Shown in pieces: positions 17,317 to 62,493 of a stretch of 64,000 bases of DNA (the first letter of the stretch is position 1; every line of letters begins with the position of its first letter). The notes below the pieces were generated by a model, which searched no databases, was not told the origin of the DNA, and saw nothing but the letters and a program-made list of their open reading frames with translations. The translations under genes were made by a program, and so were the position numbers. The DNA is from Thermomicrobiales bacterium (lineage in GTDB: Bacteria > Chloroflexota > Chloroflexia > Thermomicrobiales > UBA6265): contig DASZAY010000012.1 of the NCBI GenBank assembly GCA_035944555.1, forward strand, positions 77,899 to 141,898, read 5' to 3'.

Positions 17317-17976
17317 TCAGGTCCGACCGGTCGCCGCCCGCCGGGCGCGGTTGGCGGCAAGGTATCGCGACAGCCACCGGATCAGCAGGTCGGCGAGGAT
17401 AGCCAGGAGGGTGATCGCGATCGCGCCGGCGAGAATCTGCTCCGGTCGCCGGAGCTTGACCCCGTCGAACAGGAGGCGGCCGAGTCCACCGGCCGCGACC
17501 CAGCCGGCGACCGTCGCGGTGCTGATCGTCACCACCGTCGCGGTCCGGACTCCGGCGACGATCACCGGCAGGGCGAGCGGCAGGGTGACCCGGGTGAACA
17601 CCTGTGCGCCGGAGAGCCCCATCCCGCGCGCCGCCTCGATGACGGCCGGATCGACGCCACGCAGCCCCGTGATGATGTTGCGGACGAGGAACGTCAGCGA
17701 GTAGGCGGCGAGGACGATGACGGCATTGTTCGTTCCCAGACCCACCACGGGGATGAGGATGGCCAGGAACGCCAGGGATGGGATCGTGTAGATGGCGCCA
17801 AGCACGCTCAGGATCGGCAGGCCCAGAGCGGGAAACCGGGCGCCCAGTACGCCGAGCGGGATCGCGATGACCAGCCCGAGCAGCAGCGCGTAGACGCTCA
17901 GTTGCAGGTGCTCCAGCGTCAGCTCAAGCACCCGACCAGGGTTTTCGAACAGGTAGTCGAGCGACAGGCCGCTCAT
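17317..17976 (-). CDS. Osmoprotectant (glycine betaine/choline/carnitine-type) ABC transporter permease
   Basis: BPD_transp_1-type permease of about 219 aa with 5-6 TM segments. It has a 4-nt overlap with the upstream ATPase gene and belongs to a four-gene Opu-type cluster. Confidence 0.85.
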   Translation of the reverse strand: MSGLSLDYLFENPGRVLELTLEHLQLSVYALLLGLVIAIPLGVLGARFPALGLPILSVLGAIYTIPSLAFLAILIPVVGLGTNNAVIVLAAYSLTFLVRNIITGLRGVDPAVIEAARGMGLSGAQVFTRVTLPLALPVIVAGVRTATVVTISTATVAGWVAAGGLGRLLFDGVKLRRPEQILAGAIAITLLAILADLLIRWLSRYLAANRARRAATGRT

Positions 17977-19046
17977 CTCGAGGACCCGGTAGCGACAATG
18001 GCGTCCGCGTCCGTGACGATCGTGTCGTCGATGCCCATGCTGGCAATACCGGCCCCGGGCTGGCTGATGCCATGGACGGTGGCGAAGTCGACCCAGCCGA
18101 TCGGGCGGGCGTCGGCGTCGACCACAATCACCCGGTCACTGGACGACTCCAGCAACCGGTCCAGCGCGGCGCGGCCAGTGCCGCTCGCCAGGATGGTCGC
18201 CTCATCGGCTCGGGGAGCGCGGCCGTCCAGCGGTCGCACCACATCCCGAATCGGGAGAAGTTCCAGGCGCCGCATCACGTTGCCGGACCCGACGAGCTGG
18301 GCGACGAACTCGTCGGCCGGCCGTGTCACCACTGCCAGCGGCGTGTCGTACTGGACGACCGCGCCATCGCGCATGACGATGATCCGGTCAGCCAATCGCA
18401 GGGCCTCCTCGATGTCGTGCGTCACGAAGACCATTGTCTGCCCCATCTGGCGATGGAGGCGGCGCAGCTCGTCCTGGAGGCGGGTACGGGTAATGGCGTC
18501 CAGTGCGCCGAACGGTTCATCCATCAGCAGCGTGCGCGGCTCCCCGGCGAGCGCCCGGGCCAGACCGACGCGCTGTTGCTGTCCGCCGGAGAGTTGCGAC
18601 GGGTAGCGACGGCGGTACTCATCCGGCGGCAGGCCGACCAGCTCCAGCAGCTCATCAACCCGGCGGCCGATCCGCGCCTTGTCCCAGCCGAGCAGCTTCG
18701 GGACGACGGCGACGTTGTCGGCGATGCGAAGATGCGGGAAGAGACCGGTCTGCTGGATGACGTAGCCCATCCGGCGGCGGAGGCGGGTCGGGGAGAGGGA
18801 CGTGATGTCGTCACCGTCCAGCCGGATGGTGCCGCCCGTCGGCTCATAGAGGCGGTTGGTGAGCTTGAGCAGCGTGGTCTTGCCACAGCCGGACGGCCCG
18901 AGGATCACGACCAGCTCGCCGGGGGTGATCTCCAGTGAGACGTCGTGGACCGCCGCCGCGCCGCTGTTCCCGGCGTACCGCTTGGAGACGTTCTCGTAAG
19001 TGATCCGGCTTCCCGTGTCGCCGGATCGACTGTCACTTGTCATCAT
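17973..19046 (-). CDS. Osmoprotectant ABC transporter ATP-binding protein with C-terminal CBS pair (OpuCA/OpuBA-like)
   Basis: Walker [10 protein letters not shown], signature LSGGQQQRVGLARAL and Walker B LLMDEPFGALD are present, plus a C-terminal region of about 120 aa typical of the CBS domains in Opu ATPases. Start set at ATG 19046 (MMTSDSR..). Confidence 0.9.
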   Translation of the reverse strand: MMTSDSRSGDTGSRITYENVSKRYAGNSGAAAVHDVSLEITPGELVVILGPSGCGKTTLLKLTNRLYEPTGGTIRLDGDDITSLSPTRLRRRMGYVIQQTGLFPHLRIADNVAVVPKLLGWDKARIGRRVDELLELVGLPPDEYRRRYPSQLSGGQQQRVGLARALAGEPRTLLMDEPFGALDAITRTRLQDELRRLHRQMGQTMVFVTHDIEEALRLADRIIVMRDGAVVQYDTPLAVVTRPADEFVAQLVGSGNVMRRLELLPIRDVVRPLDGRAPRADEATILASGTGRAALDRLLESSSDRVIVVDADARPIGWVDFATVHGISQPGAGIASMGIDDTIVTDADAIVATGSSR

Positions 19047-19175
19047 CGCTCTCCGTCGACACCGGGACCAGGAGCGGACCGGGTCACATCCGGGAGTCTG
19101 GATCAATCCGCCCGAAAACGCCGGGAGGGCACCGGCCGTGGCCAGCACCCTCCCGGCAGCGTATCAGGGTTGGAA

Positions 19176-20192
19176 TCAGCCCGTGATGATGCCGTTGTCG
19201 GTCAGGAACTGCCGCGCGACGTCAGCCGGCTCCCCGCCATCGACGACCACCGCGACGTTGAGCGAGATCATCGCCTCGGTCGTCAGCAGATCGATGACCG
19301 GGTTCACCAGCTCCGGGATGTTCGGGTAGGCCTCGATGACCTCGTTGCGGAACACCGGGACCGCGTGGGCCGGCGGGAACAGGCTCAGGTCGTCCTGCAG
19401 CACGACCAGGTCGTTCTGGGCGATCTCGGCGTCGGTCCCGAAGGCGAGGACGACGTTCGCCTCGCCAGCAAGGAACGCATCGTACTTCAGGCCCGGGTCG
19501 ACGCCATTGACGGTGGCGTTCTCGAAGCCGCCGCCGTAGGTCGCCTGCAGCGCGACGAACCCGTCGCCGCGATCGGGCGCCTCGAAGTCGACCGGCGCGG
19601 AGATCGTGATGTCGTTGTCAGCGCCCCACTCAGCCAGCTCGCTGATGGTCGTGATGCCGTTCTCGTCGGAGAAGGCGCGGGTCACGGCGATCGCCTGGTT
19701 GTTGTTGAAGGGCGTCTGGTTGAGCGCCGTCAGGCCGAGCTCGGCGTACCCGGCGACGATCGCGTCGTAGACGTAGAGATCGGCGGCCGAGAACGCGGAT
19801 CCCTCACCGGCGACTGGTGTCGCGGCTTCGGGCGACGCCGCGAGCTGACCCGCGACCTCAGCGTAATCCATCGCGAAGATGCCTTCGAAGGTGTACGCCG
19901 TGCCCGAGTACTCCGGGTAGACGTCGATCTCACCCTCGACGAGCGCGGTGTGGGCGATGCCCGTGCCGCCCAGGTTGATGGCGTCGAGGTTGACGGCGAC
20001 GCCGCCGTTCTCGAGGGCCTGGCCGATCAGGTGGCCGAGCGTGAACTGCTCCGGGAAGTCCTTGGAGCCGACGCGGACGGGTTCGCCCTGTGCTCCCGAC
20101 GGCCGGGTGAGTGCGGCGAGTCCGAGCCCGGCAACGGGAACGGCAGCCGCTCCCTTGAGAATGGTTCGACGGGAAAGGGGAGTGCGGTTCAT
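19176..20192 (-). CDS. Glycine betaine/choline-type substrate-binding protein (OpuAC family), Tat signal
   Basis: MNRTPLSRRTILKGAAAVPVAGLGLAAL is a twin-arginine signal, and SKDFPEQFTLGHLIGQALENGG is typical of OpuBC/OpuCC-like binding proteins. GAAAGG lies upstream of ATG 20192. Confidence 0.85.
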   Translation of the reverse strand: MNRTPLSRRTILKGAAAVPVAGLGLAALTRPSGAQGEPVRVGSKDFPEQFTLGHLIGQALENGGVAVNLDAINLGGTGIAHTALVEGEIDVYPEYSGTAYTFEGIFAMDYAEVAGQLAASPEAATPVAGEGSAFSAADLYVYDAIVAGYAELGLTALNQTPFNNNQAIAVTRAFSDENGITTISELAEWGADNDITISAPVDFEAPDRGDGFVALQATYGGGFENATVNGVDPGLKYDAFLAGEANVVLAFGTDAEIAQNDLVVLQDDLSLFPPAHAVPVFRNEVIEAYPNIPELVNPVIDLLTTEAMISLNVAVVVDGGEPADVARQFLTDNGIITG

Positions 20193-20455
20193 CACAGGGA
20201 AACCTTTCGTCCTGGGGTGATTGGCGATCCAAGGGTGGATCCTGGCCGGGGGACTACACCCGGACAGAGCGAAGGGGGACCGTCGCAGGCCGAATGGTTC
20301 GTTCGCAAGAACAGTTCCCCAATCGGCCGGGATCCCCCGGTCCACAGACCATAGGTTGAATGCCGGTCAATCCTTGCCCTCTTGAGGCAGACGGGACGGG
20401 CTATCGCCACCGGCGGACCGGACGGAACCGGAGACCGGGGAGTTGGCCCGTTCCG

Positions 20456-21169
20456 CTACCGACCGGGAGCGGGGGCAGCACGGAACGGCCAGAGCCGTCG
20501 TGCTCGAGAGGAGCGGCCCGGCTGCTCCGGCGGCGTAACGGCACGCTGGAACCCGGCGAGGATCACCTCGGTCAGCAGGGCGAGGATTGCGATCGGGATC
20601 GCCCCGGTGAGCAGCTCCACGTCGTTGAGCGTCGAGATCCCGCTGGTCAGGTAGAGCCCCAGGGTCCGGACGCCGATGAACGCCGCCACGGCCGCCGACG
20701 CGATGATCTCGATAGCGGCCGCCCGGACGCCACCGATGATCACCGGCAACGCAAGGGGCACCTCCACCCGGAAGAATGCCTGGACCGGGGTCATCCCGAG
20801 TCCCTTCGCGTTCTCTCTGACGGAGGCGGAGACGCTTCGCAGCCCGGCGTCGGTGTTGATGACGAGCGGCGGCCCGGCCAGGACGACCAGCGCGATCAGC
20901 GCCGTCTGGTAGCCGGTCCCGATGACCGAGTAGCCAAGGAAGACGATGGCCAGCGACGGCACCACCCGCGCGGCCGAGACCACGCCAAGGATCCCCGGGC
21001 CGACGATGCGCGTCTTGTTAACCAGGACCCCGAGCGGCACGAAGATCAGGAGCGCGAGTACCAGCGCGGACCCGGACAGGCGCAGGTGCGTCTCCAGGGC
21101 GCCGGTGAATCGGTCCGGGTTGTCCGCGATCGCGGTCCAGACTTCGCCAAGGATGCCCAGGGTCGACAC
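20456..21169 (-). CDS. Osmoprotectant ABC transporter permease (second permease)
   Basis: 237-aa BPD_transp_1 permease, paralogous in pattern to 17317..17976, and the first gene of the cluster. Confidence 0.85.
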   Translation of the reverse strand: MSTLGILGEVWTAIADNPDRFTGALETHLRLSGSALVLALLIFVPLGVLVNKTRIVGPGILGVVSAARVVPSLAIVFLGYSVIGTGYQTALIALVVLAGPPLVINTDAGLRSVSASVRENAKGLGMTPVQAFFRVEVPLALPVIIGGVRAAAIEIIASAAVAAFIGVRTLGLYLTSGISTLNDVELLTGAIPIAILALLTEVILAGFQRAVTPPEQPGRSSRARRLWPFRAAPAPGR

Positions 21170-21506
21170 TCCGTTCAGGTGATCAGCGGGTCAGGTCCGC
21201 ACGATGGCCGGAGGGATTCGTGCCGATCGTAACAACTCGGCCATAGTTCCGCGATAGCGGAGGCGCGAGCGCGTGCAACCATCGTCCTTGCGAATCGGTC
21301 ACTTGACCCTGACGCGGCGGGAGGGTGTGCAATCCGACCGCAGGAGCACCATCGCCCGCAAGGTCCGGGCCGACCGGCAACCATCTGTCTCCCGGGCGTT
21401 CACCGGGACACGGAACGACCGGTATCACGATGCACCATGACGGCGAGCGCGCGATTGCGAATACCCGGCGGACCGATCGGTGCTGCCGGGCTGGGGGAGC
21501 GAGAGC

Positions 21507-22355
21507 ATGACGACGGAAACGGGCATGAAGATGGACACGGGGAACCAGGCGGCGAGCGACGGCCGGTACATGATCCAGGCGACCAGGGTCGTCAAGGAGT
21601 ACACCACCGGCCACGCCACCATCCCCGCGCTCAAGGGCGTCGACTTCGCGGTCGAGCGGGGCGAAATGGTCGCCGTGATGGGGCCGTCGGGTTGCGGCAA
21701 GACCACCCTGCTCAACTGCCTCTCCGGGCTGGACGACATCACGTCCGGGCAGGTCCTGCTCGAGGGGGTGGACCTCGCCACCCAGAGCGACCGGCAGCGG
21801 ACGGTGTCGCGGGCCAAGCGGATGGGGTTCATCTTTCAGGTCTACAACCTGCTGCCGGTCCTGAGCGCCGTCGAGAACGTGGAGCTGCCGCTGCTGGTCA
21901 GCGGGGTCAAGCCGAAGGAAGCCCGCAGCCGTGCCCAGGCCGCGCTCGGCCAGGTGGGCCTCGCGAAGTGGGCGGGACACCGGCCGGCCGAGCTGTCCGG
22001 TGGCCAGCGCCAGCGCGTCACGATCGCCCGGTCGCTGGTCAACGAGCCCGCCATCGTCTGGGCCGACGAGCCGACGGGCGCGCTGGACAGCACCAACGCG
22101 ACCGAGATCCTCAATCTGATGCGAACGCTCAACAAGGAGCAGGGGCTGACGCTGGTGATCGTCACGCATGACCCCGGTGTCGGCGCGGGCTGCGACCGCA
22201 TCGTCCGGATGCGCGACGGCGAGATCGTCGGCGAGGAGAAGACTTCCGGCGAGTTTGGCACCGACGGGCTCGGCACGCTTCACGGCACCGAGGACAGCGT
22301 CCAGATGCCCAGCCGGACGTCTCAGCTCACCCGCGAGCTCTACGCCCGGTCCTGA
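21507..22355 (+). CDS. ABC transporter ATP-binding protein (MacB/LolD-like)
   Basis: Contains [34 protein letters not shown] and [11 protein letters not shown]. It pairs with a downstream FtsX-type permease. The start is uncertain (21480 or 21507). Confidence 0.9.
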
Positions 22356-22426
22356 CCTCACCCGGCCGCCGCACCACTACCACGGCATCCCGCATCTGAG
22401 CGGGGCGCCGGGAGGATCGTGCCCAG

Positions 22427-25400
22427 ATGAACGAGATCTTCGGTATCTCCATGGACGCGATCATGGTGACCTTCGTCATCATGCTCGTCCTCTGCCTCTC
22501 CTATACCGCGTGGATCGCCTTGCGCCAGCGCGTCGTGTTCCGCCTCGGGATGCGAAACATCCCGCGGCGCAAAGCCCAGACGGCGCTGATCGTCGTCGGG
22601 CTGATGCTCTCGACGCTGATTTCCACCGCCGCCCTCGGGATGGGCGACACCATCGACCGGTCGCTCAGCCAGTCCGTCTACGGCGTACTCGGCGAGGTCG
22701 ACGAGCTGGTCTACCCGGCCGTCAGCCCGGGCGGCGACGCGATCACCGATACCAGCGCCACCCTGTCGGCCGACGCCCTGGGCGCGGTCGACGCCGTGGC
22801 TGCCACGTCGTCGATCATCGATGGCGTGATGCCGGCCCTGTACCTGCCGGTCCCGGTCGTGAACGACGCCAGCCAGCTGTCCACACCCGAGAACCTGATC
22901 GTTGGCATCGACCCGACTCGCGCCGACCAGTTCGGCGGGCTGCGGACGCCCGGCGGTGAGGTGATCGACCTGGCCGCGGTGCCGAGTGGTCAGGTCGTCA
23001 TCAGCGAAGGCCTGTCGGAGGAGATCGATGCCGCCGCCGGGGACCAGCTGACCATCTACTACGCCAACCAGCCCGTTCCCCTGACCGTGGCGGCCGTCGC
23101 CGAGAACAGCCCGCTCTCCGGCGTGCTGAACACCAGCAACCAGAACGGCATGGTTGTCCGGCTGGACGAGCTGCAGCGCGCGACGGGGATGGAAGGCCTC
23201 CTGTCCTTCATCGCCGTTTCCAATGTCGGCAATGGCGATGACTCGATCGGCCGGACCGATGATGCCGTGGCGGAACTGGAGCCGGCCCTGTCCACGCAGC
23301 CGGTCGCGGTCAATCCGATCAAGCAGGACCTGCGTGAGCAGTCCGCGTTGATCTCCTCCTCGCTCACCGGTCTGTTCCTGGTGCTGGGGCTGTTCTCGAT
23401 CGCGGTCGGCGTGCTGCTGATCGTCCTGATCTTCTCGATGCTCGCCGCCGAGCGCCGGGCCGAGATGGGCATGGCCCGCGCCGTCGGCCAGCAGCGCCGT
23501 CACCTGATCCAGCAGTTCATCGCCGAAGGGTCGGGCTACGCGCTGCTCTCCGGGTTAGTCGGAGCGGCGGCCGGGACCCTGGTGATCCTGGGGCTGGCGC
23601 AGATCCTCAAGGACGCGGTCGGCGACTTCTTCGACGTCCAGGGCTTCGTGTCGTGGCGCAGCATCGTCGTCGGCTACTGCCTTGGCGTGATCATGACCTT
23701 CCTCGCGATCGTCGTCGCCTCGTTCCGGGCCAGCCGCCTGAACGTCGTCGCTGCCATCCGCGACCTGCCGGATCGTGAGGAGGCCAAGCGGCGCAAGCGG
23801 ACGCTGGTCACCGCGTCCCTGATCACCCTGGTTGGTGTCCTGCTGATCGCGGGCGGTGTCTCCCTGGGGGAGAGCGGGACCTTCCTGTTCTACTTCGGCA
23901 TGAGCCTCGTCCCGCTTGGCCTGGCGACGTTCGCCCGCTGGTTCGGCGTCCCGTCCCGGCTCGCCTACTCGCTGGTCGGCCTGTACCTGCTGCTGCTCTG
24001 GTTCCTGCCGGCGGAGCAGTCCCGGGCGGTCTTCGGTGAGGTCGCGACCGGCGGCGACTTCGAGATGTTCTTCCTGATCGGCATCTTCTCGGTCGCCGGG
24101 ACGACGATGCTGATCACCCAGAACCTGGACATCCTGCTCGCTCTGGCCAGCCGGATCGGGTCGCTGTTCGGGTCGCGGCTGCCGGCCGTTCGCCTGGCGA
24201 TCGCCTATCCGGGCGCCAACGTCGGGCGCACCGGTCTGACGATCGCGATGTTCAGCCTGATCGTGTTCTCGCTGGTCGCGTTCTCGACGGTCAGCGCCAA
24301 CTTCAGCCGGATCTTCATCAACTCGGATGCCGGCGCGGGCTACGACGTCCAGGTCGTCGTCCAGCAGGCCAACCAGATCCCGGACCAGGATATCGTCGGG
24401 GCGCTCAACGCAGCCGGCGCCGATACCAGCGACATCACTGCCGTCGGAACCATCCCGCAGGTGGCCGCGCAGGCGCCGATGCGGCAGCTGGACAGCCCGG
24501 ACCCGGGTACGGACCTTCCTGACGATTCGTCCCTGGCGCCGCTTGCCGGTTTCAGTGACAGCTGGCTGGAGAACGCCGAGGTCCGCTTCCAGGCGCGCGC
24601 CGCCGGCTATCCCGACGACGCCGCGATCATCAACGCCCTGCGGACAGAACCGGACGTCGCGGTCGTCGATGCCGGGTCGATCGGCGCCAATGGTGGGTTC
24701 CCGGGCCAGTTCCTGGTCCGCGGGTTCGAGGCGACCGAGCAGGGCTGGAACCCGATCCAGGTCGCGTTCACCGACCCGACGACCGGTGAGTCCCGGACCC
24801 TCCGCGTCATCGGGGTGATCGATCAGGACTTCAGCACGCTGTTCGGCGTCTACGTCGGCGGCGGGACGGCCGCGACGCTGGCTCCCGAGCCCAACCAGGT
24901 GACCTATACGATCGCCCTCGCCGACCCGGACAACGCCACGGACCGGGCCCGGGAGATCGGATCGGCGCTGCTGGCCAATGGCGCGGTCGCCGACTCGTAT
25001 GACGAGATCCTGGAAGAGAACCAGGGCATCTTCTCCGGCTTCCTCCTGCTGATCCAGGGCTTCATGGGACTGGGTCTGATCGTCGGAATCGCCGCCGTCG
25101 GCGTGATCGCCTTCCGCGCGGTGATCGAGCGGCGCCAGCAGATCGGCGTGCTGCGAGCGATCGGCTACGCCCGGTCGATGGTCTCGCTCAGTTTCATGAT
25201 CGAGACGGCGTTCGTCGTCGGCCTCGGCGTGATCTCGGGGACCATCCTCGCGCTGGTCACCGCCTGGCAGCTGTTCCAGGATCCCAACTTCACCGGTGAG
25301 ACGGGTGCCACCGGGATTGTGGTGCCGTGGGGGCTGGTCCTCGTCGTCCTCGCGATCACCTTCGGGTTCGCGATGCTGATGACCTGGGTGCCGAGCCGCC

Positions 25401-25444
25401 AGGCCGCCAGCATCCGGCCGGCCGAGGCGCTGCGCTACGAGTAG
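22427..25444 (+). CDS. FtsX-like ABC transporter permease with two FtsX domains and large extracytoplasmic loops
   Basis: 1005 aa. Two blocks of 4 TM segments have the FtsX pattern (e.g. FSMLAAERRAEMGMARAVG and AFRAVIERRQQIGVLRAIGY), separated by long soluble regions. Confidence 0.85.
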   Translation: MNEIFGISMDAIMVTFVIMLVLCLSYTAWIALRQRVVFRLGMRNIPRRKAQTALIVVGLMLSTLISTAALGMGDTIDRSLSQSVYGVLGEVDELVYPAVSPGGDAITDTSATLSADALGAVDAVAATSSIIDGVMPALYLPVPVVNDASQLSTPENLIVGIDPTRADQFGGLRTPGGEVIDLAAVPSGQVVISEGLSEEIDAAAGDQLTIYYANQPVPLTVAAVAENSPLSGVLNTSNQNGMVVRLDELQRATGMEGLLSFIAVSNVGNGDDSIGRTDDAVAELEPALSTQPVAVNPIKQDLREQSALISSSLTGLFLVLGLFSIAVGVLLIVLIFSMLAAERRAEMGMARAVGQQRRHLIQQFIAEGSGYALLSGLVGAAAGTLVILGLAQILKDAVGDFFDVQGFVSWRSIVVGYCLGVIMTFLAIVVASFRASRLNVVAAIRDLPDREEAKRRKRTLVTASLITLVGVLLIAGGVSLGESGTFLFYFGMSLVPLGLATFARWFGVPSRLAYSLVGLYLLLLWFLPAEQSRAVFGEVATGGDFEMFFLIGIFSVAGTTMLITQNLDILLALASRIGSLFGSRLPAVRLAIAYPGANVGRTGLTIAMFSLIVFSLVAFSTVSANFSRIFINSDAGAGYDVQVVVQQANQIPDQDIVGALNAAGADTSDITAVGTIPQVAAQAPMRQLDSPDPGTDLPDDSSLAPLAGFSDSWLENAEVRFQARAAGYPDDAAIINALRTEPDVAVVDAGSIGANGGFPGQFLVRGFEATEQGWNPIQVAFTDPTTGESRTLRVIGVIDQDFSTLFGVYVGGGTAATLAPEPNQVTYTIALADPDNATDRAREIGSALLANGAVADSYDEILEENQGIFSGFLLLIQGFMGLGLIVGIAAVGVIAFRAVIERRQQIGVLRAIGYARSMVSLSFMIETAFVVGLGVISGTILALVTAWQLFQDPNFTGETGATGIVVPWGLVLVVLAITFGFAMLMTWVPSRQAASIRPAEALRYE

Positions 25445-53312: not shown

Positions 53313-54203
53313 TCACGTTAGACGGCCCGGCAGGCGCTCGATGGTACGGACGGTGAGGGCGGCTGCTCTCCGGCCAACTTCGGCCAGCGGGAACTCGTCC
53401 ATCGCGCCGCCAAGATCCGTCGCAGCGGTGTACTCGTTGTTGGAGATGTCCTTGATCGGCAACAGCGGCAGGTCCAGCCGCTGGCAGATCACGCCCAGAG
53501 CCGCCGTTTCCATCTCCTCGCAGAGCGTCCCGTGGCGCTCGAACAGGATGTCGATCCGCGCCGTCGCCTGGGTCCAGGTGTCGGCCGAGGCGACCGCCCC
53601 GACATGGATCTGCGGGACGTGACCGGTCGTCGGCCACGGCTCAGGTTGCCAGTCTGCGGCCGCCTCGTGAGCGGCACGAAGCAGCTCGGGATCGCTCGGC
53701 GTCTCGGAGGGCGGCAACGGGTCGGGGCCGGTCGAGAGCGTGTTGCCCCGGTAACGCTCGGTACCGTCCGGGAGCAGGTCGAAGGCGGCGTGGTTGATCG
53801 AGACGTCGCCGATGATCACGTCGCCCAGCGTCAGGTCTCGCCGGTGCGCGCCAGCGCAGCCGTAGGAGATCACCGCGCGGATGGTCATCCGCCCCAGCAG
53901 CGCGGCGAGCGCCCCGGCGGCATTGGCCGGACCGATCCCGGCGAGGACCGCCACGATTGGGTGCCCGGCGATCGTGCCGGACCAGACCGGCCAGGTCCCG
54001 GCCAGCGGGGTCCGGTTCGGCTCCGGCAGGACGGTGAGCTCCCGGCGAGCATCCTCGGTCAGGAGCCCCAGCGCCGGGTCGGCGCTCCCGTCCTCGGCTT
54101 CGTCGAGGACCAGCGCGTCGAACAGGTGACGGAGCTCGGTTCGCATCGCGACGATGATGGCGACCGGGGCGTTGGGGTGCTTGTGGGCGGAAATGGCGGG
54201 CAC
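53313..54203 (-). CDS. PNP_UDP_1 family nucleosidase (MTA/SAH nucleosidase / futalosine hydrolase-like)
   Basis: Contains VAIIVAMRTELRHL, VLAGIGPANAAGALAALL, ISYGCAGA and EEMETAALGVICQRLDLPLLPIKDISN, the typical MtnN/Pfs motif order. Several insertions are present. Confidence 0.75.
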   Translation of the reverse strand: MPAISAHKHPNAPVAIIVAMRTELRHLFDALVLDEAEDGSADPALGLLTEDARRELTVLPEPNRTPLAGTWPVWSGTIAGHPIVAVLAGIGPANAAGALAALLGRMTIRAVISYGCAGAHRRDLTLGDVIIGDVSINHAAFDLLPDGTERYRGNTLSTGPDPLPPSETPSDPELLRAAHEAAADWQPEPWPTTGHVPQIHVGAVASADTWTQATARIDILFERHGTLCEEMETAALGVICQRLDLPLLPIKDISNNEYTAATDLGGAMDEFPLAEVGRRAAALTVRTIERLPGRLT

Positions 54204-54225
54204 GGGACCTCCAGGGAGCCGGGAT

Positions 54226-54606
54226 CTATCGAAGCAGCGAGACGATCATGCTGCCGGCCAGGACGATCAGGACCAGCGTCGAAATGGCGGCGAAGCGGCG
54301 ATCGCCCAGCCGCAGGAAGCCCGCGATGATCCCAAGCGTGGTCACCACCGGCGTCAGCACGATCGCGAAGATCGCCAGCTCTGCGAAGGCTGCCGGGTTG
54401 CCATCGGCGACGGCGTCCGGGAGCTCGCCAAGGGTGAATGTCTCCCGGCCGATGGGATCGCCGCTGACGACGGACGCGACCAGGGAGGCGACGACGAAGG
54501 CGACGCAGACGAAGAAGCCGCTGACCAGGCAGAGGCGTGCGATCCGGTAGACCACGTCGGCAGGCTGCGTCTCGGCCGGGGATGGGGTGGAGGACGGTTG
54601 CTTCAT
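54226..54606 (-). CDS. DUF1634 domain membrane protein
   Basis: Small 3-4 TM protein immediately downstream of a TauE/SafE gene, which is the usual genomic partner. Start set at ATG 54606 (MKQPSS..). Confidence 0.7.
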   Translation of the reverse strand: MKQPSSTPSPAETQPADVVYRIARLCLVSGFFVCVAFVVASLVASVVSGDPIGRETFTLGELPDAVADGNPAAFAELAIFAIVLTPVVTTLGIIAGFLRLGDRRFAAISTLVLIVLAGSMIVSLLR

Positions 54607-54610
54607 CGGG

Positions 54611-55504
54611 CTAGCGCTCCCACGGGACATCGATGCCGGCGGCCTGGAGAATCATCGAGACGGCCAGGAACAGCATGATTGCGACGAACAGCCCGATCAG
54701 CTTCTCGGTCGACATCCGCCGGGTCAGGCGCGGACCGAGCTGCGAGCCGATGAAGACGCCGATCAGCGCGAACACGACGACCTGCGGGTCGATCTCGCCG
54801 GAGGCGTAGTAGACGGTCGCGGTCGCCACGGCGGCGAACCCCACCATGAAGGTGCTGGTCCCGGCCGCCGCCTTGACCGGCACCTTCATCAGCGCCGTCA
54901 TCGCCGGGACCTGGATCAGCCCGCCACCGATGCCGAGCATGCCGGAGAGGACGCCCGCTCCGGCGCCGATCCCGATCCCGGCCCGGATGTTCCGCGGCTC
55001 GTAGGCGATGTCCTTGCCGGTCGCCCGGTCGCGGAACCGCCCGGCGAGCGGGGAGAGGACCGGGGCCGAAGGCGGCGGGTCCTGGGATTCGCCGGGAATC
55101 GCGGTCGGCGCCTCAACCGGTACGACTTGGGGCTTTGGCCGGCGCTGGGCCAGCATCGAGATGATCGCGTAGACGAGGACCGCCGCGAAGATCGCGCTGA
55201 TCACGCGCTGATTCATCGCGACGCCGACGATCGCCCCGACGGTCGCGCCGGCGGCGGTGGTCACCTGGAGCAGCATCGCCAGCCGGAGATTGGTGAACTG
55301 GCTGCGCAGGTGGACCGTCGAGCCGACGACCGAGTTGGCGACGACGGCGACCGCGCTGGCCCCGATCGCCGCCTTCTGGTCGATGCCGAAGAAGATCGTG
55401 AACAGCGGGACGATGAAGATCCCGCCGCCGAGTCCGAGCATCGAGCCGATGATCCCGGCGCCGGCCGAAACGACCGTCAGCAGCAGGAGTTCCTGGAGTT
55501 CCAC
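54611..55504 (-). CDS. Sulfite exporter TauE/SafE family membrane protein
   Basis: Contains GAGIIGSMLGLGGGIFIVPLF and a second internal repeat GVLSGMLGIGGGLIQVPAM, the two-repeat TauE signature. Confidence 0.9.
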   Translation of the reverse strand: MELQELLLLTVVSAGAGIIGSMLGLGGGIFIVPLFTIFFGIDQKAAIGASAVAVVANSVVGSTVHLRSQFTNLRLAMLLQVTTAAGATVGAIVGVAMNQRVISAIFAAVLVYAIISMLAQRRPKPQVVPVEAPTAIPGESQDPPPSAPVLSPLAGRFRDRATGKDIAYEPRNIRAGIGIGAGAGVLSGMLGIGGGLIQVPAMTALMKVPVKAAAGTSTFMVGFAAVATATVYYASGEIDPQVVVFALIGVFIGSQLGPRLTRRMSTEKLIGLFVAIMLFLAVSMILQAAGIDVPWER

Positions 55505-57093: not shown

Positions 57094-57324
57094 CACGAAC
57101 TCCAGCAATCGACAACACCAACCACGATTACCTGTACATACACCGGGCGGAGTGTACCGCGATACGATGACTGATCCGATCCAGGGATACCGGGCTCTTT
57201 CGCGATCGTCGTTGACACGCAGGCCGGAGCGGGCGATGCTTCCCAGCGGCTTCGCCCGGGTGGGCGAGCCGCGACACGACTGACAACCCAGGGCGATCGG
57301 GCGTCTCTCCGCGGGCATGAATGC

Positions 57325-57430
57325 TGGCGGAGGAGACGAGACGGGGGAAGCCGGTGAGAATCCGGCGCTGTCCCGCAACTGTGACGGACGGACGAGAGTC
57401 CACTCCGGAGCCAGGCTACCCGTTCCGATC
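57325..57430 (+). promoter_or_regulatory. Cobalamin (B12) riboswitch aptamer
   Basis: The conserved core GGGAAGCCGGTGAGAATCCGGCGCTGTCCCGCAACTGTGA lies at 57345..57384. A B12-box-like AGTCCACTCCGG follows, then GAGCCAGGCTACCCG (compare the consensus GAGCCAGGAGACCTGCC). The aptamer lies in the 5' leader of the 57624 operon. Its boundaries are approximate. Confidence 0.85.
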
Positions 57431-57503
57431 GCGACCGGCCCCTCCGAGAGAGAGGGCATCCGGCGACCGGCTTCGCGATAGCTTCGCGTCTACCGGCCGA
57501 CCG

Positions 57504-57543
57504 ACGCCCGTTCCTCATCCGCGAGGGACGGGCGTTTCCGTTT
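57504..57543 (+). terminator. Riboswitch expression-platform terminator
   Basis: ACGCCCGT(t)CC-tcatccgcgag-GGACGGGCGT is followed by TTCCGTTTC. It lies 80 nt upstream of ATG 57624. Confidence 0.7.
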
Positions 57544-57623
57544 CAAGCCCACGGGGCCAGAGGACGGGACCACGGGATCGATCGGAAATCGCGCTGGACG
57601 ACTCGTCGCGGAGAAGAGATGTC

Positions 57624-58655
57624 ATGGTTGTTCCGTTCCACACACTGACTGGTGAGATCGCTCGCCGTCTCGCTGCCCTGCTGATCGCGCTGGCACTCGT
57701 CGGCGGGCTGGCGGCTCCGGCCGCCGCTCAGGAGGCCACTCCAGGGGCTGGTACGCCGTCGGCGGGGACGCCTGCGGCCTCCGTTGTCGGGCTCGGTGGC
57801 GTTGATCTCGCCGCTGCCGCGGCCGGGCTGATCGCCGTCCAGGATGCCGGTGGTGGCTTCATCGGCTTCAGCGGTGACGCCGATCCTGGCGTGACGACTG
57901 ACGCCGTCATGGCGCTTGTCGCGGCCGAAGAAGCTGGCGTCGATGTCGGCGACAGCATCGACCTCGCCCTCGGCTACCTCGAGAGCGAAGGCGCCGCCTA
58001 CGCGGAGATCGGGATCGGCCAGGCCGCCAAGCTGGTCCTGGCGGTTGTCGCCGCGGGCGCCGATCCGGCGGCATTCGGCGGGACGGACCTTGTGGAGGCC
58101 ATCGAAGGTATCGAGATCGTCGACGGAGTGATCGGCACCGGCTACTTCGACGCCGCCTACGTGACGCTCGCCGCCGCGGCGCTCGAGAGCGAGCGGACCA
58201 GCGAGTTCAGCGACGCACTGCTCGCTGGCCAGCTTGAGGACGGCTCCTGGGCGTACTCGCCCGGCGCGGCTGTCGGCGACGGTGATAGCAACACGACCGC
58301 GCTGGCGCTGCAGGCCATTGTCGCGACCGGCAACGCCGAAGACCCGGCGATTGAGGCCGGGCTGGCCTACCTTGCGACGGTCCGGGCCGAGAACGGAGGC
58401 TACGGGTACGCCGCCGTCACCGATGTGCCAACCGTCGCCGATGCTAATTCCACCGCGCTGGTGATCCAGGCGCTGATCGCGACCAGCACCCCGGTCGATG
58501 ATGCCGGATTCCAGGCCGATACCGAGGCGCTGGCGGCGTTCCAGCTGGAGTCCGGTCAGTTCGCCTACCTCCTCGACGATCCGACCGACAACCTGTTCGC
58601 GACCGTCCAGGCCATCCCGGCCGCCGCCGGACTGCCGCTGCCCGTCGCCGCCTGA
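57624..58655 (+). CDS. Secreted prenyltransferase/terpene-cyclase-like (alpha/alpha toroid repeat) protein, B12-riboswitch regulated
   Basis: A signal peptide ends at ..LAAPAAA|QEATPGAGTP. Repeated motifs of the QW/prenyltransferase type are spaced about 45-50 aa apart: VQDAGGGF, QLEDGSWAY, RAENGGYGY and QLESGQFAY. First gene after the riboswitch. Confidence 0.7.
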   Translation: MVVPFHTLTGEIARRLAALLIALALVGGLAAPAAAQEATPGAGTPSAGTPAASVVGLGGVDLAAAAAGLIAVQDAGGGFIGFSGDADPGVTTDAVMALVAAEEAGVDVGDSIDLALGYLESEGAAYAEIGIGQAAKLVLAVVAAGADPAAFGGTDLVEAIEGIEIVDGVIGTGYFDAAYVTLAAAALESERTSEFSDALLAGQLEDGSWAYSPGAAVGDGDSNTTALALQAIVATGNAEDPAIEAGLAYLATVRAENGGYGYAAVTDVPTVADANSTALVIQALIATSTPVDDAGFQADTEALAAFQLESGQFAYLLDDPTDNLFATVQAIPAAAGLPLPVAA

Positions 58656-58716
58656 TGAGATTCGCCGGGTCGCTCCCATTGCGGTCCGGCGAACGGAACC
58701 GATTGAACCCACGACC

Positions 58717-59403
58717 ATGAGACACATTCCCGTCCCGCTGCCGATCCTCGCTGTCGCCCTCCTGCTGATCACCATCCTGTCCCTCGATGGGACGGTGGTG
58801 GCTGGACAGGACGCGGCCGCCGGATCGGTCAGCCGGGCGGGAATCGTCGTTCTCCACGGTGACGGATCCCGGACCGACGCCGTCGTGGCGTTCCCGGGCG
58901 CCGACGTGTCCGGTGTCGAACTGCTCCGGCAATCGGGGATCGAGGTCCTCGCCGTCCCGTTCGGCGGCCTCGGTGAAGGGATCTGCCAGATCGAACAGGA
59001 AGGCTGCGAGATCTCGGAGTGCCGGCGGACCGTCTGCCAGGCGACGCGTGACGCCCCCTACTGGCAACTGTTCGACCGGGTCGCGGCTGACGGGACATGG
59101 CAGTCGGCCCGTCTGGGGGCCTCCGCCTCCCGGGTGAGGGACGGGCAGGTCGTCGTCTGGGCCTGGACCAACGATCCGATCGACCTGCCTCGCCTGGACC
59201 TGCCCGCGGTCGCGACCGCGGCGGGACTGGACCAGGAAGCCCTCGAGACGTTCGGGCAGGACGGCCCGGACGCGGTCGTCGCGTCGGGGTATACGAGCCC
59301 GTCCGCCCCGGTGACATCGAGTGCGGGGCTGATTGGCCTGCTGGCGATCATCGTGACCGGCGCGGTCATCCTGCTCGGCAGGCGCCTACGTATGGTCCGA
59401 TGA
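58717..59403 (+). CDS. DUF4430-like (transcobalamin beta-domain-like) protein with an N-terminal signal/TM and a C-terminal TM anchor
   Basis: The core AGIVVLHGDGSRTDAVVAFPGADVSGVELLRQSG..FGGLGEGICQIE..APYWQLFDRVAADGTWQSARLGASASRVRDGQVVVWAW follows the DUF4430 pattern, a (Y)W-x-(Y/L)-x-V..G......G.....(V/L).DG(D/Q).(I/V).W. The C-terminal anchor is GLIGLLAIIVTGAVILLG. Assigned by pattern only. Confidence 0.5.
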   Translation: MRHIPVPLPILAVALLLITILSLDGTVVAGQDAAAGSVSRAGIVVLHGDGSRTDAVVAFPGADVSGVELLRQSGIEVLAVPFGGLGEGICQIEQEGCEISECRRTVCQATRDAPYWQLFDRVAADGTWQSARLGASASRVRDGQVVVWAWTNDPIDLPRLDLPAVATAAGLDQEALETFGQDGPDAVVASGYTSPSAPVTSSAGLIGLLAIIVTGAVILLGRRLRMVR

Positions 59404-60878
59404 CGATTCCGGCGATCCCACGGCCCCGGAACGTGCCGTCCGTCCGGCGCACCCGACGACCATTATCCGGTTCCTTGCCGTCCGGTCGCAGCCGACCCGA
59501 CAGGAGAATCAGTGGGGCGCAGGGGTCGCGCTCCCAGGTCCGGGCCGTCACGCCGATCTCGGAACGACCTTCGACGTACCGTGATCCGGTTGACGCGACG
59601 CAGGTCCTCGATCCGCGCGTCTGGCTCGTCTGGCTGGCGGCAGTCACGTTCCCGGCTCTGGCTGGCCGGAACCCGTTTCCGCTTTTCGGGTTGCTGATCG
59701 TGGTCATCGTCGTCCGGGGAGCCTGGGCGCCGGCACTCGTCCGGGAGGCGGGCTGGGTGCTGGTCCTCCGGATCGCCCTCTTCGCCGCCGTCCTCAGCGT
59801 CCTCTTCAACCTGCTGGCGGCCCCGTTCGGCGACCAGGTCCTCGTCCGGCTCCCGTCGTGGTGGCCGCTCGGCGACGTCATGACGCTCAACGCCCTGACC
59901 TACGGGCTGATGGGGGCGCTGGCGATCGTCGTGATCGTCCTCGCGGGAACCATCGCCGGGGCGCTGGTCGACTGGCCGGAGCTGCTGCGGATGGTGCCAG
60001 GGCGGCTGCTCCCGCTCGCCGTTGCCGGGAGCATCGCCTGGGCGTTCGTCCCGCGGACCGTGTCGACGATCCGGGACATCCGCGACGCCCAGCGGAGCCG
60101 GGGCTTGCGCTTCGAGTCGGCCCGGGCGGTCCTGCCACTGCTGGTCCCGCTGATCGCGACCTCGCTGGAACGCGCGTCCACGACGGCCGAGGCGCTGGAA
60201 TCGCGAGGGTTCGGCGGCAGTTCGGGTCTGTCGCGAAGCCGCCGTCGCCGGGGCGCGAGGGCCATGCTGGCCGGAGGTGCAGCCCTGGGGGTCCTCGCCG
60301 CAACCACCTGGCTGAATGGAGACCGGACCGTGGCCGGACCCACCGCCCCTGGGGCGATCGTCCTGCTCGTCTGGGGCCTTCTCCTATCGCGCCAGTCGTC
60401 GGGCCGGACCCGCTATCGCCAACGTCGCTGGACCGGCGCGGACCGGGTGATCCTCGCGGCGGCGGCAGCCTCCCTCGGGTTGTCAGTCCTCGTCTGGCTC
60501 CGGCACCGGGAGGCGGTTGCCTGGAGCCCGTATCCCGATGTCGTCTGGCCCGCAGGCGACGGCTGGCTGATGGTGGCGATCCTCCTGCTGTTCGCGCCCG
60601 CGGTCGCCGCCCCCCTGGTCGTGCAGCGCGGGGAGTCGGCAAGCCGGGACGCTCTCGTCCAGTCCCCGGAAGCTCCCGGGACTTTCACGGTCGCGGTCGT
60701 CAAGGACAACGCGCCAGGACTAATGTCCCCGGCCAGTCGCCGCGGTCACCATTCCCGGCAGCGACCGTTCGCGTGCTGGCCTCCGCGGGTCATCAACCGC
60801 GGCAGGCAAGATCATGAGGTGCCCCGGTTGCTCGACGTGGTACCCAGGTCCGATCTGAGGCTCGCCGGGGATGATTGA
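59400..60878 (+). CDS. ECF transporter transmembrane (T) component EcfT/CbiQ with N- and C-terminal extensions
   Basis: The ATGA start/stop overlap with the preceding gene suggests coupling. TM1-4 are followed by the two coupling-helix motifs, IRDIRDAQRSRGL and TSLERASTTAEALESRGF (Ala-Arg-Gly type). There is a roughly 65-aa Arg-rich N-terminus, and about 4 TM segments instead of about 1 after the coupling helices. Confidence 0.85.
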   Translation: MTIPAIPRPRNVPSVRRTRRPLSGSLPSGRSRPDRRISGAQGSRSQVRAVTPISERPSTYRDPVDATQVLDPRVWLVWLAAVTFPALAGRNPFPLFGLLIVVIVVRGAWAPALVREAGWVLVLRIALFAAVLSVLFNLLAAPFGDQVLVRLPSWWPLGDVMTLNALTYGLMGALAIVVIVLAGTIAGALVDWPELLRMVPGRLLPLAVAGSIAWAFVPRTVSTIRDIRDAQRSRGLRFESARAVLPLLVPLIATSLERASTTAEALESRGFGGSSGLSRSRRRRGARAMLAGGAALGVLAATTWLNGDRTVAGPTAPGAIVLLVWGLLLSRQSSGRTRYRQRRWTGADRVILAAAAASLGLSVLVWLRHREAVAWSPYPDVVWPAGDGWLMVAILLLFAPAVAAPLVVQRGESASRDALVQSPEAPGTFTVAVVKDNAPGLMSPASRRGHHSRQRPFACWPPRVINRGRQDHEVPRLLDVVPRSDLRLAGDD

Positions 60879-62493
60879 GCGGCCAGCAAGGACCATCGCG
60901 CGGCTGGCCAATGTCTCGTACCGCTACCCTGGCGCCACGCGTCCCGTCCTCACCTCGGTGGACTGGGAGATCCCGGATGGCGCGTTCGTCGTCGTCGCCG
61001 GCGCGTCTGGCAGCGGCAAGAGCACCCTGCTGCGGACCCTCAACGGTCTGGTGCCCCACTACTCCGGCGGGCGCTTCGGTGGGCGGGTCACGGTGGCCGG
61101 CCTGGATACCCGCCGCCATGGTCCTCGTGAGCTGGCGAGATCGGTGGGGTTCGTCTTCCAGGACCCGGAAGCGCAGCTCGTCACAACCCGGGTGGTAGAC
61201 GAGATCGCGTTTGGCCCGGAACAGTTCGGGATGCCCACGCGGGCGCTACGGGTTCGGGTCGAGGAGGCGCTCGACCTGGTCGGGATCGCCCACTTGGGCG
61301 GCCGGGAGATCGCCACGCTCTCCGGGGGCGAGCGACAGCGCGTCGCCATCGCCGCCGCCATGGCGCTCGGTCCGCGTCTGCTCGTCCTCGATGAACCGAC
61401 CAGCCAGCTGGACCCGTGGTCGACCGAGGAGGTGATCGCGGCGCTCGTCCGGCTCAATTCCGATCACGGGATCACGGTCGTCATCGCCGAGCATCGCCTG
61501 GACCAGCTGGCTGCCGGAGCCGACCGCTTGCGGATGGCGATCGAGGACGGACGCTGGCTGGAGGGTCCACCAACCTCGGTTGTGGCCGACGGGCGGGTGC
61601 CCGATCTGCTCCTGCCGTCCGTCGTGCGTCTCGGGCGGCGGCTGGGCTGGTCGCCGCTGCCACTGACGGTCAAGGCGGCCCGCGTCGCCGCTGCCGGCAC
61701 ACCGGTGAGGATCAGTGCCCCGCGAACCGCCACCGCCGACGGTCAGACGCTGATCTCGGCTCAGGGCCTGCGCCTGGAGCATCCGGTTCCGGGCGGTGCG
61801 CGGCCGGTCCTCGCTGATGTCAACCTGCGACTTCGTGAGGGCGAGATCGTGTCCCTTGTCGGGCGGAACGGGTCGGGAAAGTCGACGCTGCTCCGTGCCC
61901 TCGCCGGCCTGCATCGTCCCTCCGCGGGGAGCATTCGCTGGCCTGGCGATGCCACCCGGCCCCTGGACGGGATCGTCGGTTACCTGCCCCAGGACCCGTC
62001 GGCGTTGTTGTTCAACGAGCGGGTCGAGGACGAGCTGGCAATCGGGCGGTCCGCCGCCGAACGGGCCGGACGACCTGAGCCGTCGTGTGAGGCATTGCTG
62101 GCGTGGCTCGGACTGGCCGATCTCGCCGACCGGCACCCGCGCGATCTGAGCTCGGGGCAACGGCAGCGGGTCGCGATCGCCGCGGTCCTGGCCGCCGCGC
62201 CGTCCGTCGTCCTGCTCGACGAGCCAACGCGCGGAATGGACGGCGTCCGGAAGGCTGAGTTGATCGCCCTGCTCCGGGAGCTGGCCGGCACCGGTCTCGC
62301 CATCGTTGTGGCGACCCATGACATGGAACTCGCTGCTGCCGTGGCCCATCGGGTCGTGATGCTGGGTGGGGGAGAAGTGATCGCGGATGGGCATCCGCGA
62401 TCGGTACTCGGCTCGGCGCTGGGTTACAGCCCCCAGGTGAGCCGGGTCCTCGGGCCGGACGTCCTCAGCGTCGAGGACGTCGAACGAGGCTGA
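60871..62493 (+). CDS. Fused double ATPase (EcfA-EcfA'/CbiO-like) of the ECF transporter
   Basis: Two complete ABC cassettes are present: GASGSGKSTLLRTLNG / LSGGERQRVAIAAAMA / LVLDEPTSQLD, and GRNGSGKSTLLRALAG / LSSGQRQRVAIAAVLA / VLLDEPTRGMD. The start overlaps the EcfT stop (ATGATTGA). Confidence 0.9.
   Translation: MIERPARTIARLANVSYRYPGATRPVLTSVDWEIPDGAFVVVAGASGSGKSTLLRTLNGLVPHYSGGRFGGRVTVAGLDTRRHGPRELARSVGFVFQDPEAQLVTTRVVDEIAFGPEQFGMPTRALRVRVEEALDLVGIAHLGGREIATLSGGERQRVAIAAAMALGPRLLVLDEPTSQLDPWSTEEVIAALVRLNSDHGITVVIAEHRLDQLAAGADRLRMAIEDGRWLEGPPTSVVADGRVPDLLLPSVVRLGRRLGWSPLPLTVKAARVAAAGTPVRISAPRTATADGQTLISAQGLRLEHPVPGGARPVLADVNLRLREGEIVSLVGRNGSGKSTLLRALAGLHRPSAGSIRWPGDATRPLDGIVGYLPQDPSALLFNERVEDELAIGRSAAERAGRPEPSCEALLAWLGLADLADRHPRDLSSGQRQRVAIAAVLAAAPSVVLLDEPTRGMDGVRKAELIALLRELAGTGLAIVVATHDMELAAAVAHRVVMLGGGEVIADGHPRSVLGSALGYSPQVSRVLGPDVLSVEDVERG

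Follow-up and report, generated by a model that had tools for sequence, protein, structure and literature searches.

The 64,000-nucleotide stretch of a Thermomicrobiales bacterium analysed here (the window; contig DASZAY010000012.1, positions 77,899 to 141,898, G+C content 68%) contains an operon in which a cobalamin riboswitch precedes four genes, g1 to g4, of the energy-coupling factor (ECF) type of transporter. The first two genes encode extracytoplasmic proteins, an alpha/alpha toroid and a membrane-anchored beta-grasp protein, and the other two encode the transmembrane protein EcfT (CbiQ) and a fused EcfA-EcfA' ATPase (Table 1). These assignments, made in an original prediction from the sequence, were upheld by Pfam and NCBIfam matches and by AlphaFold2 (AF2) folds. 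ECF transporters are defined by a membrane-embedded, toppling S component and use no soluble binding proteins. The locus encodes an EcfT and two EcfA-type domains, and no S component is encoded in cis; the CbrT-family S component that would mark a CbrTUV/ECF-CbrT transporter was not found in the window. With modest confidence we read the operon as an ECF module for corrinoid scavenging that is repressed by B12 and relies on an S component encoded at another site. This reading and its main rival, capture by the two surface proteins alone, are the two options that the original prediction had put forward, and both still apply.

The coordinates of g1 to g4 match public gene calls, and the g1 and g2 proteins are identical to NCBI VGT61_07995 and VGT61_08000; the locus also occurs in a JGI contig. 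The start of g3 is ambiguous, one public gene call placing it at the more downstream of the two positions given in Table 1. The two gene overlaps predicted earlier, ATGA at 59400 and ATGATTGA at 60871, can both be read in the sequence. The operon is flanked, also as predicted, by genes for an M28 peptidase and a TetR regulator, which Pfam recognises and which both lie on the opposite strand.

Table 1. Features of the operon (coordinates refer to the window)
Feature	Coordinates	Strand	Basis
Cobalamin riboswitch aptamer (RF00174)	57281..57443	+	Covariance model, full-length match
Expression platform: hairpin and UUCCGUUUC tail, probable intrinsic terminator	57504..57543	+	RNAfold
g1: secreted or N-terminally anchored alpha/alpha-toroid protein, 343 aa	57624..58655	+	AF2, Foldseek, hhalign
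g2: signal peptide, beta-grasp domain and C-terminal transmembrane anchor, 228 aa	58717..59403	+	AF2, alignment
g3: EcfT/CbiQ with C-terminal extension of four transmembrane helices and Arg/Pro-rich tail	59400 (or 59475)..60878	+	PF02361
g4: fused EcfA-EcfA' ATPase, 540 aa	60871..62493	+	Two PF00005 domains, TIGR04520

Riboswitch and expression platform

The Rfam search with cmscan yielded a single match in the 64-kb window, the cobalamin riboswitch, which aligns over model positions 1-189 with 51.0 bits (gathering score 31.5; E 8.9e-10) and encloses the B12 riboswitch core previously placed at 57345..57384. At 60 bases 3' of the aptamer, a 13-bp GC-rich hairpin (57504..57535) followed by UUCCGUUUC is present in both the minimum-free-energy and the centroid structures of RNAfold. 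The terminator-type platform that had been proposed for this region is thus backed by the folding, but a simple consensus terminator scan did not report the hairpin. Since most related loci also carry, after the aptamer and before the first gene, a GC-rich hairpin with a U-rich tail, the platform is likely a transcription-terminating OFF switch, in which termination would depend on B12.

Absence of an S component gene in cis

The operon had been predicted to lack any gene with the architecture of an S component, and all searches of the operon, its flanks and the whole window agree. A six-frame scan for transmembrane (TM) helices found no small open reading frame (ORF) with 5-6 TM helices in or beside the operon, Pfam returned no S component, and a hidden Markov model (HMM) of the S family that occurs in related operons gave nothing in the window (best E 4.5). 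The same HMM gave nothing in 424 kb of Thermomicrobiales-type loci, the window included (best E 4.3), with controls at 300-420 bits.

Two candidates for a concealed S component were rejected. The remaining window ORFs with six TM helices encode BPD_transp_1 permeases that belong to an OpuA-type system, and the C-terminal extension of g3, considered as a fused or degenerate S component, gives no signal with the S HMM and is found in the same form beside an S gene in a relative, the Dehalococcoidia metagenome-assembled genome (MAG) L003 (relatives are given by locus number). The C-terminal TM anchor of g2-like proteins is also found in S-containing relatives. As the g3 extension and the g2 anchor are both common to S-containing relatives, neither is a clade-specific replacement for S, and no clade-specific gain that would explain the loss of the S gene was found in the operon.

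Conservation of the operon and distribution of the S gene

The sample of relatives comprised 23 genome loci and 80 metagenome loci, classified by tblastn and the S-family HMM. Linkage of the gene set to B12 riboswitches, on which the original prediction depended, is kept. In the genome scan a riboswitch precedes the genes in all 21 Thermomicrobiales-type loci whose sequence reaches upstream of them. Separate protein lookups gave four loci with a riboswitch (L003, L004, L005 and L006, the last being on the same contig as L019), and 19 of the 24 broader-family loci tested have one. The order g1-g2-T-AA' (T, EcfT; AA', fused ATPase) is found in all Thermomicrobiales-type loci wherever the contig reaches far enough, and in about 20 distinct Thermomicrobiales/Chloroflexia loci the riboswitch and the four genes stand together and the surrounding ±8 kb contains no S gene.

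Outside the Thermomicrobiales group, every evaluable relative (Dehalococcoidia, Streptomyces, metagenomes) has a CbrT-like S gene in the operon, and the three cases scored as lacking S are contigs that end right after the cluster. Three S-containing gene orders were observed: toroid-T-AA'-g2-S, toroid-g2-S-T-AA' and toroid-g2-T-AA'-S. The last of these is the order of the window with S added, and it is also that of Streptomyces, where a 313-aa hypothetical protein between the toroid and T is taken as the g2 counterpart by position only. In L003 the order is riboswitch-toroid-T-AA'-g2-like-S, with an S component of 278 aa (PF07155/PF12822). This protein is related to S components encoded on Lactobacillus plasmids, including that of L115 (H11; 39.6% identity over residues 117-207), which itself matches the solved CbrT chain of L. 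delbrueckii, 6fnp_A (E 1.8e-9). Among the 120 closest relatives listed for the Dehalococcoidia S component, the named ones belong to Dehalococcoidia or Chloroflexi.

In a tree of the fused ATPases, built by simple neighbour joining with no support values, the S-less loci group together and apart from the S-containing clades, with the pair L028 and L029 deep and separate. This grouping suggests that the S gene was lost from the operon in one or two old events. Within the S-less clade the ATPases have diverged to ~42-47% identity.

Some relatives divide the system between separate units. The metagenome locus L110 has two cobalamin riboswitches, at 4645-4827 (+) and 11798-11958 (-): the first precedes g2-like, toroid and g2-like genes and the second, in convergent orientation, precedes EcfT-ABC-S, so that receptor and transporter halves can be separate B12-controlled units. 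In L104 (4782-10500) and L107 (1-5026), the riboswitch is followed by genes for a 581-aa toroid and a g2-like protein and then by cobT (PF02277), cobS (PF02654) and a presumed cobU, the first two recognised by Pfam and cobU read from its N-terminal sequence only. No ECF or other transporter genes were found near the binding-protein pair in these two loci, and their gene content ties the pair to corrinoid salvage and lower-ligand attachment. The cluster of Streptomyces sp. SAT1 (L114) adjoins metE.

The ECF module

The g3 protein matches CbiQ (PF02361) over residues 69-273 with 41.9 bits (cutoff 25) and contains two Ala/Ser-Arg-Gly coupling motifs, SRG at residues 233 and 268. Its 4-TM extension aligns with that of the T protein of the S-containing L003; the T protein of Streptomyces L114 is similarly long (389 aa), and Lactobacillus CbrV (298 aa) is without the extension. 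The g4 protein contains two ABC_tran domains (PF00005) and scores 337.9 bits on TIGR04520 (ECF_ATPase_1; cutoff 315) and 324.5 bits on TIGR04521, just below the cutoff of 330. Walker A, signature and Walker B motifs are intact in both halves.

In the subclade of the window, to which L005, L007 and L008 also belong, EcfT ends in an Arg/Pro-rich tail of ~60-90 aa (60615..60878 in the window) with a weakly conserved RPxPWAxWPP-like motif. The third-codon-position GC of the g3 tail is 0.76, compared with 0.89 in the rest of the gene.

This weaker coding signal, together with the binding-protein pair that stands without a transporter in L104 and L107, would fit a decaying or rewired remnant, in which the ECF part is non-functional or repurposed and the surface proteins feed a different importer, for instance BtuCD, or sequester corrinoids. 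We regard such a remnant as very improbable: T and AA' are kept in every evaluable member of the clade despite the divergence of the ATPases, all catalytic and coupling motifs are intact, and the genes still overlap, a state in which dead genes would not persist.

The intact motifs of the ATPase and EcfT point to a module under selection, and they would equally suit an importer that works without any S component. The surface proteins would then deliver the corrinoid to T, the 4-TM extension and the TM anchor of g2 forming the translocation path. Such an importer is conceivable but, in our judgement, unlikely, and marginally more so in the specific form in which a Thermomicrobiales ECF transporter would have a split transcobalamin-like pair hand the corrinoid directly to the extended EcfT, energised by EcfA-A'. 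The idea gains from the loss of the S gene in about 20 diverged loci in which the other four genes and the riboswitch remain tightly linked, with overlapping genes, and from the position of g2 directly before T, with the ATGA overlap. It gains further from a single chain of the clade (P0291; L033:7001-8755, 584 aa, from a Thermomicrobiales-type MAG) that joins a g2-like domain to CbiQ, although this chain could be a real fusion or an artefact of frameshift, assembly or gene calling. In L033 a gap of 850 bp separates P0291 from the ATPase gene. The proposed path is weakened by the fact that the T extension and the g2 TM anchor occur equally in the S-encoding L003 and L114 and are not clade-specific, and we know of no substrate pathway in EcfT. 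Nor is any ECF transporter known to work without S (PMC5997447).

The two extracytoplasmic proteins

The g1 protein has an N-terminal signal or anchor, and its AF2 model (predicted local distance difference test, pLDDT, 91.2) is an alpha/alpha toroid. The best folds found by Foldseek are those of single-domain squalene-hopene cyclases and prenyltransferase beta subunits (TM-score ~0.6). All Pfam matches of g1 are below threshold, and on the NCBIfam model SCO2321_fam (NF053823) it reaches 75.7 bits, below the cutoff of 300. Comparison of the g1 family with the toroid-like gene of the Lactobacillus CbrVUT cluster (L. plantarum plasmid pMF1298-5) gave an hhalign probability of 88% (E 2.8e-6). The protein is related to SCO2321 and is the counterpart of the transcobalamin alpha domain. 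A role as a terpene cyclase or prenyltransferase was rejected, because the protein is secreted, lacks the DxDD catalytic motif (present in 1 of 39 family members) and is homologous to the toroid-like partner of the CbrVUT cluster; it shares only the fold of these enzymes.

The g2 protein is composed of a signal peptide, a beta-grasp domain of ~115 aa, a linker and a C-terminal TM helix followed by RRLR. Its AF2 model (pLDDT 85.3) is a beta-grasp fold with an insert, and its best and sole significant match in the PDB is 3u7z (probability 1.00, E 1e-4, TM-score 0.73 normalised to the target). A 2026 paper (PMC13385337) assigns this structure, deposited as a 'putative metal binding protein', to CATH 2.170.130.30, the superfamily that also includes the beta domains of transcobalamin-1, transcobalamin-2 and intrinsic factor. 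At the sequence level, g2 has no Pfam match at E <= 0.1, DUF4430 (PF14478) included, and no NCBIfam match; the g2-family profile gave chance matches only against PDB sequences, comparison of the family with a genuine DUF4430 protein gave no signal (hhalign probability 0.3%), and tblastn of g2 against plasmids gave no match. The earlier label 'DUF4430-like' therefore holds by fold and operon position and fails by Pfam and profile-sequence comparison, and the link of g2 to transcobalamin is one of fold and context only. The recent Pfam family PF28005 'SCO2322' is annotated on distant g2 homologues, and the homologue of L003 scores 34 bits on NF040672 (cutoff 85). The g1 and g2 proteins are thus related to the SCO2321 and SCO2322 families, and they are not members by the curated thresholds.

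The g2-domain profile matched 2,234 cluster representatives at E <= 1e-3 among 1.84 billion proteins. Single chains in which a toroid and a g2-like domain are fused occur in both orders, the one with the N-terminal toroid being the order of transcobalamin. Riboswitch linkage, kept gene order and the fusions of g2-like domains with toroids and, in one chain, with CbiQ together point to the g1-g2-ECF set as a functional unit.

Four Cys residues are invariant in an alignment of 26 g2 homologues. They are spaced C-x6-C-x4-C-x4-C (residues 90-107; 58984..59037) after the beta-grasp helix, in a segment inserted at the position of the B12-contacting hairpin of transcobalamin, and some relatives carry up to six Cys (CFCQC). 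These residues could form disulfides or serve as metal or corrin ligands. In L074 (3822-8062) a 358-aa g2-like protein directly follows a cluster that was read from ORF N-termini as ZnuABC-like (Fur/Zur-like regulator, lipoprotein, ATPase and 9-TM permease), and no cobalamin riboswitch was found at this locus; some members of the g2-like domain family may therefore serve metal uptake and not corrinoid uptake.

The invariant Cys, the deposition title of 3u7z and the neighbours of the L074 gene would all suit a cargo other than cobalamin itself, either a precursor, a different tetrapyrrole or a metal, such as cobalt, heme, or cobinamide and other incomplete corrinoids. Heme has been proposed for Lsa1836-1840 of L. 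sakei, whose deletion impaired heme uptake (bioRxiv 10.1101/864751), and salvage of incomplete corrinoids would agree with the cobT and cobS genes beside the binding proteins in L104 and L107. A different cargo nevertheless seems to us improbable. Control by a cobalamin riboswitch is nearly universal in the family, so the product should be one that meets the B12 demand of the cell, and the S components of the relatives are homologues of CbrT, which carries cobalamin and cobinamide and not hemin (PMC5997447). Cobinamide, moreover, fits the favoured explanation and is no true rival to it.

Possible origin of the S component

According to the favoured explanation, the host, a monoderm Chloroflexota bacterium represented by a Thermomicrobiales MAG, would keep the operon off when corrinoid is abundant, the riboswitch then favouring the terminator hairpin, and would make the four proteins when corrinoid is scarce. 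On the outer face of the membrane, the g1 toroid and the membrane-tethered g2 would act as a split transcobalamin that sandwiches the corrinoid; we infer that the pair binds it and hands it over to a membrane subunit. Joint binding has indirect support from the toroid fusions, the riboswitch linkage and the cobT/cobS neighbours. EcfT and EcfA-A' would form the ATP-driven ECF module, and S, as in group II ECF systems, would be encoded at a separate locus, perhaps with a B12 riboswitch of its own. The corrinoid link of the operon, proposed earlier, is upheld by the riboswitch linkage across the family and by the CbrT-like S of relatives, and is supported by the cobT/cobS and metE neighbours, the fold of g2 and the homology of g1 to the toroid-like gene of the CbrVUT cluster.

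Three considerations make supply of the S component in trans the most probable case. Every known ECF transporter requires S, which has been indispensable in every one studied, and the CbrT of L. delbrueckii is encoded apart from its shared module (PMC5997447). Relatives split the system, as in L110 and in L104 and L107. Finally, the T protein of the operon has no compensating novelty, and there is no extra domain able to replace S.

Several results weigh against this explanation. An S component in trans was not observed in a search that spanned the 64-kb window and the ±8-kb neighbourhoods: no S gene of the relatives' family lies within that distance in the ~20 distinct loci, and no second cobalamin riboswitch was found in the window or in the sampled Thermomicrobiales-type loci. 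Every other lineage keeps S in the operon, which makes it unexpected that a stoichiometric partner should have been encoded elsewhere for so long, and the g2-like-CbiQ fusion P0291 (L033) belongs to the S-less clade. As to the receptor, the 50 best fold matches of g1 do not include transcobalamin, g2 is not recognisable as DUF4430 by sequence, and the corrinoid binding ascribed to the two proteins is one that we infer.

The family as a whole bends the rule that ECF transporters use no binding proteins, as it has transcobalamin-like surface receptors of a kind almost uncharacterised biochemically in bacteria. Its Thermomicrobiales version, in which the operon has long been kept without an S gene, may bend the S-component rule too. 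An S gene elsewhere in the genome would make the locus a dedicated B12-regulated ECF module with a trans-encoded S, and a supply of 'split transcobalamin' proteins from bacteria; a genome devoid of S would make it the first ECF-type importer to work independently of that component. In either case, the sister operons with and without an S gene lend themselves to comparison.

Neighbouring genes

Just upstream of the riboswitch, and divergent from it, lies a trio of genes for TauE/SafE (PF01925), DUF1634 and PNP_UDP_1 proteins (53313..55504, minus strand). The trio is also found at L005-L009, L011, L012, L014-L019, L021, L022, L024, L026 and L027, among the ~20 S-less loci, in which the distance from the TauE start to the aptamer is often just 200-350 bp. 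It is not found at L003 or L114, the S-containing relatives inspected. The arrangement could be lineage synteny, rpsP and rimM also being near, or a functional link. Further away, the region 17317..25444 encodes an OpuA-type glycine-betaine ABC system (two BPD_transp_1 permeases, an ATPase and an OpuAC binding protein), as well as a divergent ABC ATPase with a 1,014-aa FtsX-type permease; both are unrelated to the operon.

Comparison with known systems

The original prediction described the operon as a poorly characterised or uncharacterised architecture of corrinoid uptake. The claim that it is uncharacterised did not stand, as such systems were predicted in 2007, a counterpart has been deleted and complemented in L. 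sakei, and the Lactobacillus CbrVUT cluster shows the same architecture. Burroughs et al. (2007, PMC1796856) predicted ECF modules with toroid and transcobalamin-like beta-grasp proteins as B12 scavengers. Their systems resemble the operon in the secreted or anchored beta-grasp protein paired or fused with a toroid, the CbiO-like ATPase and the CbiQ-like membrane protein. They differ in being a prediction in which the S component was not addressed, and in that the g2 family falls outside Pfam DUF4430.

The L. sakei system Lsa1836-1840 (S, A-A', T, beta-like and alpha-like proteins) was deleted and complemented by Verplaetse et al. (bioRxiv 10.1101/864751); its automatic annotation was cobalamin transport. 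The system differs from the operon in encoding an S component (Lsa1836), in its demonstrated effect on heme uptake and in having a beta-like protein of the recognisable DUF4430 type, whereas g2 is of the Cys-rich SCO2322 type; the text consulted reports no riboswitch control.

ECF-CbrT and the CbrVUT cluster share with the operon a substrate class, cobalamin and cobinamide, and a T protein and fused ATPase of the same kind. The plasmid cluster L115 (L. plantarum pMF1298-5) also has the toroid-like gene, located after the CbrVUT genes, and, at the position of g2, a genuine DUF4430 gene. In contrast to the operon, these systems have the defining S component CbrT, and CbrV is without the 4-TM extension of g3. 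The ECF-CbrT of L. delbrueckii is active in liposomes without any extracellular protein (PMC5997447).

A further likeness is to the SCO2321-SCO2325-type clusters of Actinomycetota and Dehalococcoidia (NF053823, NF040672, PF28005; L114, L003), which are built from the same protein families: a toroid, a Cys-rich beta-grasp protein with TM anchor, an extended EcfT and a fused ATPase, in L003 under a cobalamin riboswitch. They differ in encoding a CbrT-like S, and the g1 and g2 of the window score below the NCBIfam cutoffs. Searches of the literature turned up no experimental work on these clusters and no publication that deals with their actinobacterial or Chloroflexota version, and an S-less form was not noted in any paper found; a search combining Thermomicrobia, ECF and cobalamin returned nothing relevant.

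The last comparison is with BtuCD-F, a type II ABC importer for B12 that is commonly under B12 riboswitch control. It is alike in function, as a corrinoid is bound with high affinity outside the cytoplasm and passed on to an importer driven by ATP. The folds, however, are unrelated, BtuF being a class III substrate-binding protein and BtuC a 10-TM permease, and no homology to the window proteins was found. Given the 2007 prediction and the L. sakei and CbrVUT cases, the peculiarity of the operon is narrower than first claimed: its architecture is known, and what sets it apart is that the S gene is missing throughout a lineage in which the rest of the operon is conserved.

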